Shown: in pieces, positions 1-6,186 of the stretch
How the letters are laid out: each line of letters begins with the position of its first letter
Position numbering within the stretch: position 1 is the first letter of the stretch
Source: Bacteroidales bacterium
Lineage (GTDB): Bacteria > Bacteroidota > Bacteroidia > Bacteroidales > WCHB1-69
Reading direction: 5' to 3'
DNA length: 64,000 nt
NCBI GenBank assembly: GCA_017551725.1
Contig: JAFZKY010000037.1
Coordinates: 123,595-187,594, forward strand
The notes under the pieces: model-generated
Told to the model about the DNA's origin: nothing
What the model saw: only the letters and a program-made list of their open reading frames with translations
Database searches by the model: none
Position numbers and translations under genes: made by a program

Positions 1-699
1 TTTTCCACCGTGGATGAAGCAGACAGGGGTGGTTTCATCTGCGTCTATCATTTCCGGATTGAAGATGCAACCCCAGAGCAATACGGCTCCTGCCACGCCA
101 AATGTTTGTTTGCGGGCCTCAGGTGTTCCCGTGGAGTGTAGCGAAGGAAATGCAGGCTTCTCGAATGTTTCCGCTGGACGTTCGTCCTCGTCCATGTACA
201 ATGCGTGGATAATGGCCACTGCCCCTGCCGACTGCCCCAGCAGGAAGATGCGGTTTGTATCGATGCGGTACTTCGCACTATTGGCCTTGAAGAAGCGTAC
301 CGCTGCACTCACATCCTGCGCCGCCATATAGCCGGTACGCACCAACCCCTTGGCTGAAAACTTCTTGGCGGGCATCACTCGATAGTCAATGGAGGCGGCG
401 GCATAACCATTTTCGGCAAAGCGGGTACACCATGCTTGCATGTCGGCCCAGTCGCGGGAGCCAAGCACGAAGCCGCCGCCGAACAGCGTGATGACCAGAG
501 GACGAAGCGTGTCAGACCTGTCCGACGGTTCGTAGAAGTCGAAGCAAAGTTTCTGCGGATGCGATTTTTCTGGAACAGACACCGGCGTATATACAATGTT
601 GTAGGGAAGCCCACGACGAACAATGATCTGGGGAGGCTGCGCGAAAACGCTTTCGCCCATCAACAAAATTGCAAACCAAATAAACGCGTGTCTTTTCAT
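1..699 (-). CDS. secreted alpha/beta-hydrolase fold esterase/lipase-type protein (3' end runs off window)
   Basis: Absent from the ORF track because it stays open to position 1. Reverse translation from the ATG at 699-697 gives MKRHAFIWFAILLMGESVFAQ (signal peptide), then ITLFGGGF (oxyanion-hole type motif), LLGQSAGA (GxSxG nucleophile elbow) and CFIHGGK at the window edge. Confidence 0.75.
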   Translation of the reverse strand, partial: MKRHAFIWFAILLMGESVFAQPPQIIVRRGLPYNIVYTPVSVPEKSHPQKLCFDFYEPSDRSDTLRPLVITLFGGGFVLGSRDWADMQAWCTRFAENGYAAASIDYRVMPAKKFSAKGLVRTGYMAAQDVSAAVRFFKANSAKYRIDTNRIFLLGQSAGAVAIIHALYMDEDERPAETFEKPAFPSLHSTGTPEARKQTFGVAGAVLLWGCIFNPEMIDADETTPVCFIHGGK

Positions 700-749
700 A
701 ACCTTTCATCAGGTTTCGACCCGCGAAAATACATTTTTTAAGCTTCCAA

Positions 750-3050
750 TTAAAACCTTACCCTCACACCTCCCAGGAAGTTGATGCCGGCCTGCGGGAA
801 GTAGCCCGTGTCATAGTATTTGCCCGGTTCATCCTCATAGTAAGAGGTGTAGATCCAGGCATTGCTTTCATACTTGGCGTTGAAGAGGTTGTTGACATGG
901 AAGAAGAGTTCCAAGTCCTTCAAGCATTTGAAATGGAAGGTGTATGAAAGACGCAGATTGCTGTAGGAGTACGGCCTCAAGCAATACGTGTCATCGCCGG
1001 AATTGTCGAGATATTGCTTGCCGACAAACTTGGTGGTCAAGGAGATGTTGAAGTCCTTGAGCGGGGTGAAGGTGAAGTCGTTGCCCAGAATCACGCCTGG
1101 CGAGAAGGAAATCGGGGTGTTGCCCAGTTCTTGGCGCACCTGTCCGTCCCAGTCCCAGTTCTCACCGGAATAGTGGTCCACATAGTTCACGTAATTCACG
1201 ATCCTGTTTATGCTGAGGTTTCCGTTGAAATGCCACGTGAAGAAGCGCACGGGACGGTAGCCCACTGACAGTTCAATGCCGCCGCGAAAGCTTTTATCCA
1301 CATTGGTCATCAGCGCGTCGCCGGTCTGGTCCAGCTCACCGGTGCGCACCAACTGGTTCTTGTAGTTCATGCCATACAGCGTGGCGTTGAGGAAAAACTT
1401 GTCGTTATGAGCCAAATAGCTGAATTCCAAATTGTAAAGAGTTTCCGGAATCGGTTTTCGATCATTTGGAGCCGCCACAAGGTCGTCGCGGGTGGGCTCG
1501 CTGTTGGCTGTGGAAAAGGAGAGGTCGAAGCTGTGTTTCAGTTTTCCACCGTTCAGGTAATAGTGCAGCGCGATTCTGGGGTTCACAAAGTTCCAGTTAT
1601 ATCGCTGCGCAATGTCCATCATATCATCGTTGGTACCGTCAATGACATAGTTGATGTGGCGATATTGCAATTCAGCCGTCACACTGAATTTCTTGTACCA
1701 GTAGCGCAGTCCGCCGAAAAACTTGGTCTGCGTCTTGTGACCAGTGCCGTAATACCATTGGTAATCACACGGATAGTCCTGCACGCGGTTGGGCTGCGCC
1801 CAGATCAGATTTCCGAAATGCTTGCCGTCATAGCGACTGTTGTCCATACCCACCACCCAGCGCAGGCCTTGGTCGGTATGGTTGCGGAACACTTGCGAGC
1901 CGGTATATTGTGCATGGATTCCATAAAAATAGTTGTCCAGATATTTTTGCGTGATGAAATCCGCCTTTTTGATGGAGTCATACAACGGTTCAAGCCCGAA
2001 ATTCCGGATTTTCTTGTTGTCTTTGTATTGCTGATAATAGCCTTCTCCACGCGTCAGGTAAGGCATCATCTGTAATTTGTGATGCTGAAGTCCGTCCTGA
2101 CGGATCCAGTCTTTCAGGTATTCCAGTTGATAGAATGTCTGGGTGTAATTGTCCTTGGAATCCGTATAATAGTGGCGTTGGCCGTCGTCTGTGTAATATT
2201 CGCCGCAGGGATTGTAGGTGCGGTTGGTGGCGAGGCTGTCATACGGAATGCCGCTCCAGGCGAGCCCCGTATGCTCGGTGCCGAACAGGAGATGGAACCT
2301 CAGTTTGCCGTAGTCCTTATTTTTCTTGAAGTTGTAAAGATTGTACTGCGCGGTGAGGAAACCGGAGTTGAGGCGCACGCCGGAATAGTCAAGGAAGCCG
2401 TCGCTGCGGATGTCGGAGAAGGAGGCCAGCATGGAGAAGTGTTTGCCGATAAGGCCGGTGCCTGCGCTCACCATGTTGTGAAAGGTGTTGTATGAGCCGT
2501 AGGAGCTGCGCACCTCGGCAAATGGTCTGTCGGGAATCTCCTTGGTCATAAAGTCGATACGAGTGCTGAAAAGCGTGCTGCCATCGTTGGAGTTGGCGCC
2601 GTTTTGCACGCTCACCTGCCCGATGTAGGCGGCCATATCGGGGAGGTTGACGAGCCAGGAGCCCTGCGACTCGGCATTGTTGATGGTCACTCCGTTGAGG
2701 GTGGTGTTGATGCGCGTCTGGTCGATGCCACGGATGAACATGTAGGTGGCGCCGAGGCCGTTGCCGCCATCCGAAGTGGTGACCACGGAGGGCATCAGCT
2801 CCAGCAGATTGTTGACGCTTCCGTTACCCTGCTGCGCGCGGATCTGCGGCATCGACATGGTGGTGACGTTGGCCGCCGTCTGCACCGTGGGCTTGGTGAA
2901 CTGGATGGTCACTTCCTCCACCTCGCCGCGCTGCACGGTGTCGATTTGTGCCGAAAGCATCGGAGACAACACAATGAGGAACAATAGGGTAACAAAGGAG
3001 TTGACTATGAACTCTGAACCATGAACTTTGAACTTTAAACTTTGAAACAT
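750..3050 (-). CDS. TonB-dependent outer-membrane receptor, TPP-riboswitch controlled (probable thiamine/thiamine-precursor uptake)
   Basis: 766-aa ORF with a signal peptide (..LLFLIVLSPMLSAQ) and a plug-like region (LMPSVVTTSDGGNGLGATYMFIRGIDQTRINTTLNGVTINN). A long barrel ends ..GGVRVRF with a terminal aromatic residue. A THI-box lies about 70 nt upstream. Confidence 0.85.
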   Translation of the reverse strand: MFQSLKFKVHGSEFIVNSFVTLLFLIVLSPMLSAQIDTVQRGEVEEVTIQFTKPTVQTAANVTTMSMPQIRAQQGNGSVNNLLELMPSVVTTSDGGNGLGATYMFIRGIDQTRINTTLNGVTINNAESQGSWLVNLPDMAAYIGQVSVQNGANSNDGSTLFSTRIDFMTKEIPDRPFAEVRSSYGSYNTFHNMVSAGTGLIGKHFSMLASFSDIRSDGFLDYSGVRLNSGFLTAQYNLYNFKKNKDYGKLRFHLLFGTEHTGLAWSGIPYDSLATNRTYNPCGEYYTDDGQRHYYTDSKDNYTQTFYQLEYLKDWIRQDGLQHHKLQMMPYLTRGEGYYQQYKDNKKIRNFGLEPLYDSIKKADFITQKYLDNYFYGIHAQYTGSQVFRNHTDQGLRWVVGMDNSRYDGKHFGNLIWAQPNRVQDYPCDYQWYYGTGHKTQTKFFGGLRYWYKKFSVTAELQYRHINYVIDGTNDDMMDIAQRYNWNFVNPRIALHYYLNGGKLKHSFDLSFSTANSEPTRDDLVAAPNDRKPIPETLYNLEFSYLAHNDKFFLNATLYGMNYKNQLVRTGELDQTGDALMTNVDKSFRGGIELSVGYRPVRFFTWHFNGNLSINRIVNYVNYVDHYSGENWDWDGQVRQELGNTPISFSPGVILGNDFTFTPLKDFNISLTTKFVGKQYLDNSGDDTYCLRPYSYSNLRLSYTFHFKCLKDLELFFHVNNLFNAKYESNAWIYTSYYEDEPGKYYDTGYFPQAGINFLGGVRVRF

Positions 3051-3117
3051 ACTCTTACAGTTTTGGTTTTTAATAAATTAAACAATACTGAAAGAGGGAT
3101 TTGGAAATAGAAACGTT

Positions 3118-3192
3118 TGTCTCCCTACGGCGGCATTATCCGCATCAGGTTCAACGGGTCTGATCTCAGCCTTTCGGCACCCCTTTCAAAAC
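3118..3192 (-). promoter_or_regulatory. TPP (THI-box) riboswitch aptamer
   Basis: The minus strand reads GAAAGGGGUGCCGAAAGGCUGAGAUCAGACCCGUUGAACCUGAUGCGGAUAAUGCCGCCGUAGGGAG. This matches the conserved TPP aptamer blocks GGGGUGC / GGCUGAGA / ACCC / ACCUGAU..GGAUAAUGCC.GCGUAGGGA. It sits between a -7 promoter box and the receptor start codon. Confidence 0.93.
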
Positions 3193-3197
3193 GGCGG

Positions 3198-3205
3198 CAA
3201 AGATA
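3198..3205 (-). promoter_or_regulatory. Bacteroidota-type -7 promoter box (TATCTTTG) for the riboswitch/receptor transcript
   Basis: The reverse complement of caaagata is TATCTTTG, which matches the TAnnTTTG consensus. It lies immediately 5' of the aptamer. Confidence 0.55.
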
Positions 3206-3263
3206 CAATATTATTTCCAAAAGACACAATATTATGTCCAATGGCGCGTTTTGAAAAAAAATG

Positions 3264-4869: not shown

Positions 4870-5106
4870 ATGAAAAAAATAATTGCGTTGCTGCTTTCTG
4901 CCTTGGGATTTTTTACAGCCTGTGACGGGCCCGAACTCATGTACGGTCCTGTTCCTCCTGAACATTGGACGACACCTGACGACACCATGTCGGTGATGTA
5001 TGGTCCTGGTTACAAAACATTTGTGCCGGACAGACAAATGGATGTCATCCAGTCAAAAGATGAAGCGTCCTCCGAAGATACGCCGTTCACGGACGAGTCC
5101 AAATAA
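4870..5106 (+). CDS. small putative lipoprotein (radical-SAM-associated type)
   Basis: 78 aa with lipobox LGFFTAC. The mature part carries two MYGP motifs (LMYGPVPPE, VMYGPGYK) and an acidic tail. It starts 11 nt after the flotillin gene and ends 6 nt before the radical SAM gene. Confidence 0.7.
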   Translation: MKKIIALLLSALGFFTACDGPELMYGPVPPEHWTTPDDTMSVMYGPGYKTFVPDRQMDVIQSKDEASSEDTPFTDESK

Positions 5107-5112
5107 CCGCGT

Positions 5113-6186
5113 ATGAAATTAGGTTGGAAGAAACGGGCCGCGCTGGAGTTGTATCGCAAGTACCACGCCATCGAGGTGCGGGAGCACACGCTGCAACAGC
5201 TCTTTTGGGAGTGTACGCTCCGTTGTTACCTCAACTGCAAGCACTGCGGCAGCGACTGTACCGCCAAAAGCAACACACCCGACATGCCGGCGGAGGATTT
5301 TATGGCCGTCATCGACAAGCTCACGCCGCACGTGGACCCGCACAAGGTAATGGTCATCTTCTCGGGTGGCGAGCCGCTGATGCGCACCGACTTGGAGCAG
5401 GTGGCGAAGGAACTCCACAAGCGCGAATACCCTTGGGGGATGGTAAGCAACGGCATGTTGCTGGACCGTGCCCGTTTGGATTCGCTGTTGCGTGCAGGCT
5501 TGCAATCCATCACCATCAGTCTGGACGGCTTCGCCGAGGAGCACAACGCCATGCGCGGCCATCCCGACAGCTTCGACCGGGCCGTGGAATCCATCCGCAT
5601 GATTGCGACGGAGCCGAACCTAACCTACGATGTGGTTACCTGCGTCACGCCAAAAACATACCCATATTTGGACCAGTTCAAGGAATTCCTGATCGGCATC
5701 GGGGTGCGGCGCTGGCGCATCTTCACCATCTTCCCGGCGGGACGCGCAGCGGACGACGACAGCTTACAACTTACCCACGAACAGGTGCAAGGGATTATGG
5801 AGTTCATCAAGCGTGCCCGACAAGAGGGTCGCATCCATTTGAACTTCGCCTGCGAGGGTTTTCTCGGCCGCTACGAAGCCGAGGTGCGCGACTATTTCTA
5901 CCATTGCGCCGCCGGCGTGAACGCGGCCAGCATCCGCATCGACGGCAGCATCTCCGGCTGCACCAGCATCCGGCACAACTTCCATCAAGGCAACATCTAC
6001 AAGGACGACTTCTGGGACGTATGGCAGAACCGTTTCCAGGAGTTCCGCGACCGCCGCTGGGCCAAGACCGGCCCGTGCGAGCACTGCGAGGCCTTCCGCT
6101 ACTGCCAGGGCGGCGGTATGCACCAGCGCGACGACGAGCGCCAACTGGTGGATTGTCTGTATTTGAAGTTGAATAGTATTCAGTAA
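5113..6186 (+). CDS. radical SAM protein with C-terminal SPASM/twitch-like Cys cluster
   Basis: 357 aa. CYLNCKHC is the CX3CX2C radical SAM cluster motif. GGEPL is a SAM-binding glycine-rich motif. The C-terminal CEHCEAFRYC (CX2CX5C) plus upstream Cys residues fit an auxiliary Fe-S (SPASM) domain. Confidence 0.85.
   Translation: MKLGWKKRAALELYRKYHAIEVREHTLQQLFWECTLRCYLNCKHCGSDCTAKSNTPDMPAEDFMAVIDKLTPHVDPHKVMVIFSGGEPLMRTDLEQVAKELHKREYPWGMVSNGMLLDRARLDSLLRAGLQSITISLDGFAEEHNAMRGHPDSFDRAVESIRMIATEPNLTYDVVTCVTPKTYPYLDQFKEFLIGIGVRRWRIFTIFPAGRAADDDSLQLTHEQVQGIMEFIKRARQEGRIHLNFACEGFLGRYEAEVRDYFYHCAAGVNAASIRIDGSISGCTSIRHNFHQGNIYKDDFWDVWQNRFQEFRDRRWAKTGPCEHCEAFRYCQGGGMHQRDDERQLVDCLYLKLNSIQ

Follow-up and report, generated by a model that had tools for sequence, protein, structure and literature searches.

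The DNA considered here (hereafter, the window) is a 64,000-nucleotide stretch from an uncultured rumen Bacteroidales bacterium (GenBank assembly GCA_017551725.1, contig JAFZKY010000037.1, positions 123,595 to 187,594 of the forward strand). Its beginning holds three elements that follow one another on the minus strand: a thiamine pyrophosphate (TPP) riboswitch, a gene for a TonB-dependent outer-membrane receptor of the OMthi type, and a gene for an exported serine hydrolase of the alpha/beta fold. A preliminary description of the window, made from the letters and open reading frames alone, had placed all three in one riboswitch-driven unit and proposed that the hydrolase adds a periplasmic step to thiamine salvage. 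We consider it likely that the locus is instead a standard Bacteroidota thiamine-uptake unit, composed of riboswitch and receptor, followed by an unrelated and separately promoted esterase gene. Homologous loci in other genomes are denoted here by numbers (L001, L002, and so on).

The riboswitch aptamer (THI element) occupies positions 3105 to 3194 of the minus strand, the same strand as the receptor, and lies 54 nucleotides upstream of the receptor AUG. It is of a compact form with a short P3 and matches the full Rfam model RF00059 (model positions 1 to 105) with a score of 67.6 bits (E 4e-11), above the gathering score of 54.3. This is the sole Rfam match within the 64-kb window, and the THI-box recognized earlier at 3121-3189 forms its core. 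Leaders of orthologous receptors score 66 to 71 bits with the same model; they are 86% identical (n = 22), and only one base pair in them displays a compensatory change. Judged from its sequence, the aptamer would act as a TPP-responsive repressor of the downstream receptor.

Directly ahead of the aptamer we observe the Bacteroidota-type -7 promoter box TATCTTTG (3198-3205, minus strand), an exact match to the TAnnTTTG consensus, as the preliminary description had also seen, which we assign to the riboswitch-receptor transcript. The motif as such is common, with 24 occurrences in the window against a chance expectation of 25, and simple arithmetic from this count gives a chance of about 0.004 of meeting it on the right strand in the roughly 20 nucleotides ahead of the aptamer. 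All 23 orthologous leaders collected have such a box at the identical offset from the aptamer, and its position is thus not due to chance. From this promoter, a leader transcript carrying the TPP riboswitch would be made. In L002, L018, L089, L090, and L111, the gene upstream ends in a terminator, a GC-rich hairpin with a T-run, that adjoins the -7 box on its 5' side, so that the riboswitch-receptor unit is insulated at this end. The promoter region in the window (3198-3240, minus strand) also contains an imperfect direct repeat, ATAATATTGTGTCTTTTGG and ATAATATTGTATCTTTGCC, with the -7 box located within the second copy.

The receptor gene (750-3050, minus strand) encodes 766 amino acids, and its earlier identification from the reading frame is borne out by both Pfam and NCBIfam: the Plug domain is found at E 1.6e-10, and residues 54 to 765 align end to end with the TonB-receptor model TIGR01786, with a score below the cutoff. 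The protein terminates in VRVRF, with an aromatic final residue (F), and a search of the PDB with the family profile returned no sequence match at E <= 1e-5. At its N terminus (3003-3050, minus strand), 15 to 20 conserved residues, MF(K/Q)SL(E/K)F(K/R)V and onward, stand ahead of the hydrophobic core of the signal peptide, and they are also present in the orthologs.

A set of 84 homologous receptor loci (33 to 92% identity) shows how consistently this gene is paired with the riboswitch. A TPP element is located upstream of the receptor in 74 of the 76 informative loci, comprising 25/25 close and 49/51 distant ones. These elements were found by pattern search and confirmed in part by Rfam at 57 to 75 bits; the loose THI-box regular expression missed several distant aptamers that Rfam later found. 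Pattern matches in L070 and L072 were rejected as false positives, Rfam having found no TPP match in L070. In addition, four distant loci (L155, L159, L163, and L169) carry a PnuT-family gene (PF04973, E 5.7e-36) behind the receptor. A second loose THI-box match is seen in L163 (8870-8928), about 1.7 kb downstream of receptor and PnuT, for which Rfam gave no match at the gathering score. A PnuT homologue is absent from the 64-kb window, and no pnuT, tnr3, tenA, or thi gene is located near the locus.

Most gut Bacteroidetes, including Bacteroides uniformis, carry a TPP riboswitch ahead of an OMthi-pnuT-tnr3 operon, and in Bacteroides thetaiotaomicron the riboswitch BtTPP2 precedes the stand-alone receptor OMthi (BT2390), a riboswitch-controlled thiamine receptor under translational control (Costliow & Degnan 2017, PMC5613172; Costliow et al. 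2019, bioRxiv 10.1101/867226). With BT2390, to which we liken the window's receptor by arrangement and not by direct sequence comparison, our locus shares a TPP riboswitch in the leader of a stand-alone TonB-dependent receptor (about 740 to 770 amino acids), the position of pnuT and tnr3 outside the unit, and a likely control of the receptor's translation start. It differs in the distance between aptamer and AUG (54 nucleotides, versus fewer than 5 reported for B. thetaiotaomicron), in its uncultured rumen host, and in the esterase gene that stands behind the receptor in a minority of species. The OMthi-pnuT-tnr3 operon has the same riboswitch and receptor module, with PnuT behind the distant members named above, whereas the window's clade lacks pnuT and tnr3 behind the receptor. 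The riboswitch and receptor are a further instance of this known system, hosted by an uncultured rumen Bacteroidales, and the earlier claim that a TPP riboswitch controls a receptor for thiamine uptake agrees with both the homologous loci and the published Bacteroides precedent. Because of the riboswitch and pnuT associations of the family and the published genetics of B. thetaiotaomicron, we infer that the receptor serves to bring thiamine or related compounds through the outer membrane.

Between aptamer and AUG, the expression platform (3051-3104, minus strand) offers two alternative pairings. The segment CUCUUUCAGU (3087-3096) is complementary to ACUGUAAGAG (3052-3061), which stops one nucleotide short of the AUG, and this pairing is a candidate sequestering helix. 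The overlapping segment CCUCUUUC (3090-3097) is in turn fully complementary to GAAAGGGG (3180-3187) on the 5' side of the aptamer (8 bp, one of them G-U), a pairing that could serve as the anti-sequestering helix. Across 22 close orthologous leaders the platform segments are invariant or nearly so and the distance between aptamer and AUG is constant; RNAalifold, run on these leaders, pairs CUCUUUCAGU with ACUGU(A/U)AGAG in a helix that ends 1 to 2 nucleotides ahead of the AUG. The two conformations, when forced, are near-isoenergetic (-36.2 and -36.0 kcal/mol), and energies of -8.1 and -9.1 are calculated for the duplexes themselves. All platform positions are invariant and provide no covariation behind either helix, and for this reason both helices are predicted, not proven. 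A terminator scan found no intrinsic terminator (hairpin and T-run) between aptamer and AUG; the sigma-70 promoter predictions made alongside carry no meaning in Bacteroidota, and the terminator output alone was used.

These features are consistent with a translational OFF switch. With TPP bound, the aptamer would fold and release CUCUUUCAGU to pair with ACUGUAAGAG, hiding the translation start of the receptor; without TPP, GAAAGGGG would pair with CCUCUUUC and leave the start site exposed. The first codons of the receptor, ATGTTTAAAAGT, are likewise conserved at the nucleotide level across orthologs, perhaps as an A/U-rich constraint on translation start.

The third element, the hydrolase gene, begins with an ATG at 699 on the minus strand and runs off the window, which contains its first 233 codons (1-699); on the parent contig the full length is 314 amino acids. 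Both motifs by which it had first been noticed as a secreted serine hydrolase are present, in the form FGGGF at residues 73 to 77 and GQSAG at residues 155 to 159. The N terminus, read directly from the sequence, has the appearance of a Sec signal peptide, MKRHAFIWFAILLMGESVFA, cleaved between VFA and Q21, and a Gln after the signal-peptide cleavage site is common in Bacteroidota. The AlphaFold (AF2) model (mean predicted local distance difference test score 86.8) agrees with a signal peptide in showing a helix at residues 3 to 15 followed by a low-confidence linker. Ser157 (within GQSAG), Asp234, and His281 are invariant across 44 orthologs, as are F73, G74, and G75; we assigned the Ser-Asp-His triad from where these residues lie in alignment and model rather than from a superposition. 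The oxyanion-hole motif reads FGGG in place of the usual HGGG, with the glycines kept and the His replaced. Two cysteines, Cys227 (window 19-21) and Cys301 (beyond the window), are also invariant in the 44 orthologs and could form a disulfide.

Family assignment of the hydrolase points to a broad group of esterases. Pfam returns BD-FAE as the best match (82.8 bits against a gathering score of 26.8, E 3.3e-23, model positions 2 to 114 of 215 only) and Abhydrolase_3 as a second (49.9 bits against 25, E 4.4e-13). The best fold neighbors in the PDB, obtained with Foldseek, belong to generic groups (short-chain carboxylesterases, lipases, and carbohydrate esterases), with template modeling (TM) scores of 0.5 to 0.6 and 14 to 20% identity, and a sequence-profile search of the PDB gives the same picture. 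A likeness to arylformamidases had been suggested on the strength of the GGGF and GxSxG motifs, yet these are generic to the whole Abhydrolase_3 and hormone-sensitive lipase (HSL) superfamily, and neither the 60 best sequence matches in the PDB nor the 50 best fold matches include a formamidase. In the Pfam and NCBIfam searches, only esterase and lipase families were returned and no known thiamine-salvage enzyme family. The protein is best described as a probable Sec-exported carboxylesterase, family-IV and BD-FAE-like, with an apparently intact catalytic triad and a fold that points to no particular substrate.

BD-FAE itself is a characterized bifunctional feruloyl and acetyl xylan esterase (PMC8165983). 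With the BD-FAE and Abhydrolase_3 families (PF20434 and PF07859; family IV, HSL-like), the window's hydrolase shares the alpha/beta fold, the GxSxG elbow, Ser-Asp-His, the GGG motif, and secretion; it differs in having FGGG for HGGG, in the half-matched BD-FAE model, and in lacking the context of a polysaccharide utilization locus, and solved structures come no closer than about 20% identity to it. A role as plant-cell-wall carbohydrate esterase, of the acetyl or feruloyl xylan type, placed behind the receptor by genomic accident, would fit several of these observations. The best Pfam match is to this very family, the fold matches include the feruloyl esterase 4zrs and the gut-microbiota carbohydrate esterases 6xyc, 6tkx, and 6mly, all relatives derive from metagenome-assembled genomes of rumen and gut Bacteroidales, as would suit a rumen fiber degrader, and paralogs carry a secretion tail of the type IX secretion system (T9SS). 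However, the match to the BD-FAE model is confined to its N-terminal half, the modest fold similarity is equal for lipases and short-chain esterases, and annotated ortholog loci contain no SusC/D or glycoside hydrolase neighbors. In addition, the orthologs are devoid of the T9SS tail and thus probably reside in the periplasm, a place where one would not expect polymeric xylan. Taken together, we regard this role as rather unlikely.

The receptor and hydrolase genes are separated by 50 nucleotides (700-749), as first described, including the near-miss -7 box TATTTTCG at 724-731. We find this variant box to be part of an 18-mer, AAAAAATGTATTTTCGCG (722-739, minus strand), a promoter-like element that we assign to the hydrolase gene. 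The 18-mer stands 32 to 35 nucleotides ahead of the hydrolase ATG in L001, L002, and L009, with 32 in the window and 35 in L009, where the upstream gene is divergent and no receptor is nearby. Because it is kept in L009 without a receptor, the element travels with the hydrolase and is probably the hydrolase's own promoter, which gives substance to a caveat already attached to the preliminary description. Its core, TATTTTCGCG, is present in L002, L171, and L173, canonical TAnnTTTG boxes precede other hydrolase orthologs at -23 to -47, and the genes standing behind the receptor where the hydrolase is missing have an A-rich TAnnTTTG box of their own directly after the stop codon of the receptor. 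In this clade, the receptor is best read as being trailed, in effect, by independently promoted genes.

Transcription signals in adjacent lineages point in the same direction. In L008/L112, L015/L102, and L019, a gap of 100 to 200 nucleotides carries a strong hairpin with a T-run right behind the receptor, and in L014 an imperfect long hairpin with a T-run, read by eye, lies between receptor and hydrolase. No intrinsic terminator was found by the terminator scan in the 50-nucleotide gap of the window, and in L002, too, the gap (50 to 53 nucleotides in the two) is free of one. Since the gap is short (42 to 53 nucleotides) and without a terminator in the window's sub-clade, read-through into the hydrolase is possible there, and the gene likely receives some of it.

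The wider genomic setting of the hydrolase also bears on its relation to the receptor. On the parent contig, a 272-kb metagenome scaffold, the next gene is a convergent DUF2807 gene, so that at most two genes can stand behind the riboswitch; neither pnuT nor a thiamine pyrophosphokinase gene, for which the preliminary description had suggested extending the contig, follows the hydrolase. A scan of one genome per species yielded 79 hydrolase loci, all from uncultured rumen and gut Bacteroidales, among them 24 close orthologs (>=58% identity); for 22 of these, the upstream region is long enough to be judged. The receptor is directly upstream in 4 of these 22 species, separated by one gene in 1, and about 4 kb upstream in another (in total, 6/22 within 4 kb), and it is absent from the upstream sequence covered (up to 8 kb) in the remaining 16. 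Where annotated, the genes upstream of the unlinked hydrolases are unrelated housekeeping genes, namely, PanB with RluA, a PHP phosphatase with an M28 peptidase, a Na/Ala symporter, and an L,D-transpeptidase in divergent orientation, in keeping with an independent hydrolase. An Rfam scan of 9 unlinked hydrolase loci found no TPP element and no other cis-regulatory RNA.

The same picture is obtained from the side of the receptor. Of 17 close receptor loci, 4 have a hydrolase within 2 kb downstream, and the 56 distant loci all lack one at this position; L089, L090, and L109 display the synteny of L002 (receptor, then Cthe_2159, DUF2490, and LGT) without the hydrolase. In one genome the two genes are 14 kb apart on the same contig. 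A linkage of receptor and hydrolase behind riboswitches, whose absence from orthologous loci the preliminary description had itself named as grounds for dropping its proposal, is thus limited to a minority of species. Together with the promoter-like box and the terminators of four adjacent lineages, this argues against including the hydrolase in the riboswitch-driven unit. The hydrolase gene would rather stand apart, with a promoter-like element of its own, and it occurs in many genomic contexts across rumen Bacteroidales.

Several observations weigh against this separation. The receptor is the hydrolase's most frequent neighbor, and the adjacent pair persists more than any other, being set within at least six different pairs of outer neighbors (L001, L171, L002, L173, L014/L015, and L008/L112). 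The closest relatives of the window's receptor keep a tight pair (L171, with 88% identity and a 42-nucleotide gap, as well as L002 and L173), and the gap of this sub-clade, which includes L001, is operon-like. In L015/L102 and L098, a second, T9SS-tailed esterase paralog abuts the riboswitch-receptor unit. Finally, the aptamer-AUG distance of 54 nucleotides falls in a class for which transcriptional control has been proposed in Bacteroides, a mode that would also affect a co-transcribed hydrolase. Ancestral proximity of receptor and hydrolase is nevertheless a sufficient neutral explanation of the pairs. In a neighbor-joining tree of the hydrolases, loci of the same context (L009 versus L010, L011, and L013; L016 versus L017) do not cluster, and since its inner topology is therefore unreliable, we make no claim on the number of joining or loss events.

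The paralog mentioned above (L015:4269-5111, L102:284-1132, and L098:1596-2432) has 416 to 424 amino acids at about 46% identity and is located immediately upstream of the promoter, riboswitch, and receptor; members of its clade carry the T9SS C-terminal sorting domain (PF18962). With this paralog upstream and the hydrolase downstream, two esterase paralogs flank the receptor in L015/L102. In L005 (4313-7011) and L028, a hydrolase ortholog (59% identity) overlaps by 4 nucleotides with the end of a Na+/alanine-symporter gene (PF01235), an arrangement suggestive of coupled translation with a transporter of the inner membrane. In L018 and L100, the order is receptor, a few intervening genes, hydrolase, and an Acyl-ACP thioesterase gene, the latter being found downstream in the window's contig as well.

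Transcriptional control offers one way of tying the hydrolase to the riboswitch after all. The switch could act mainly through Rho-dependent or other noncanonical termination, or through mRNA decay, such that receptor and hydrolase of the sub-clade are repressed by TPP as a bicistronic operon, irrespective of the hydrolase's function. An aptamer-AUG distance of more than 40 nucleotides, as found here, has been linked to transcriptional control in Bacteroides (bioRxiv 10.1101/867226). In the window no terminator stands between receptor and hydrolase, and on the parent contig a hairpin with a T-run follows the hydrolase. Against this, the leader has no intrinsic terminator-like hairpin and T-run, the conserved helix abuts the AUG just as sequestration of the start site predicts, the hydrolase keeps its own promoter-like box, and OMthi of B. 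thetaiotaomicron is regulated at translation only. We consider such an operon unlikely and favor translational control of the receptor, to which a transcriptional component may be added.

A role of the hydrolase as accessory to thiamine acquisition was the core of the preliminary proposal: co-expressed with the receptor, the enzyme would deformylate or de-esterify compounds such as formylaminopyrimidine or acylated thiamine in the periplasm, before uptake across the inner membrane. Jenkins et al. (2007) reportedly described a formylaminopyrimidine salvage by way of ThiXYZ transport, the deformylase YlmB, and TenA. That pathway shares with the proposal the hydrolysis of a thiamine breakdown product coupled to uptake under TPP control. 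It differs in that YlmB, a cytoplasmic metallopeptidase-family enzyme, is not known to be an alpha/beta hydrolase, and in that the window's hydrolase is not consistently controlled by a TPP riboswitch and has no tenA, thiD, or thiXYZ nearby.

Some of the genomic evidence would suit an accessory of this kind, namely, the adjacency of the pair under different outer flanks, the short terminator-free gap in the four members of the sub-clade, the putative export of an enzyme whose catalytic triad appears intact, the paralog adjoining the riboswitch-receptor unit in L015/L102 and L098, and the symporter overlap in L005/L028, which suggests a recurrent association with transport. The larger part speaks against it. 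Most species with a close ortholog have no receptor in the upstream sequence covered, the 9 unlinked loci scanned are devoid of TPP elements, close receptor orthologs of identical synteny lack the hydrolase, and none of the distant OMthi loci has one behind the receptor. Furthermore, terminators split the two genes in four adjacent lineages and the hydrolase has its own promoter-like box, no pnuT, tnr3, tenA, or thi gene is nearby, and sequence and fold neighbors are generic carboxylesterases, neither formamidases nor YlmB-type deformylases.

In full-text searches of the literature we found no report of a hydrolase or esterase linked to a TPP riboswitch and TonB-dependent receptor, and the text of the two Bacteroides papers (PMC5613172 and bioRxiv 10.1101/867226) contains neither "hydrolase" nor "esterase." We conclude that an accessory role is quite improbable, and the periplasmic salvage step proposed with it fails in most orthologous loci. 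Even if the hydrolase of the sub-clade is reached by read-through, nothing ties its function to thiamine. The narrower idea that the OMthi receptor of this sub-clade recruited a periplasmic carboxylesterase into its transcript, to unmask, once TonB-dependent import has taken place, a compound related to thiamine that is esterified, acylated, or formylated, is highly improbable on the same evidence, although, if true, it would represent an unrecognized periplasmic step of vitamin B1 salvage and suggest that rumen bacteria import masked thiamine derivatives.

Elsewhere in the window, on the plus strand (4870-6186), an open reading frame of 78 amino acids with a lipoprotein-like signal (LSALGFFTAC) is followed after 6 nucleotides by a 357-amino-acid radical SAM/SPASM-domain gene; the two could be a small-protein and maturase pair.

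The evidence thus points to what appears to be a textbook unit of riboswitch and receptor, next to an esterase gene that is transcribed independently. The locus extends the pairing of OMthi with the TPP riboswitch to an uncultured rumen Bacteroidales lineage, and the two complementary invariant segments of its conserved platform form the basis of a testable model for how translation is controlled in a phylum where Shine-Dalgarno sequences are mostly missing.

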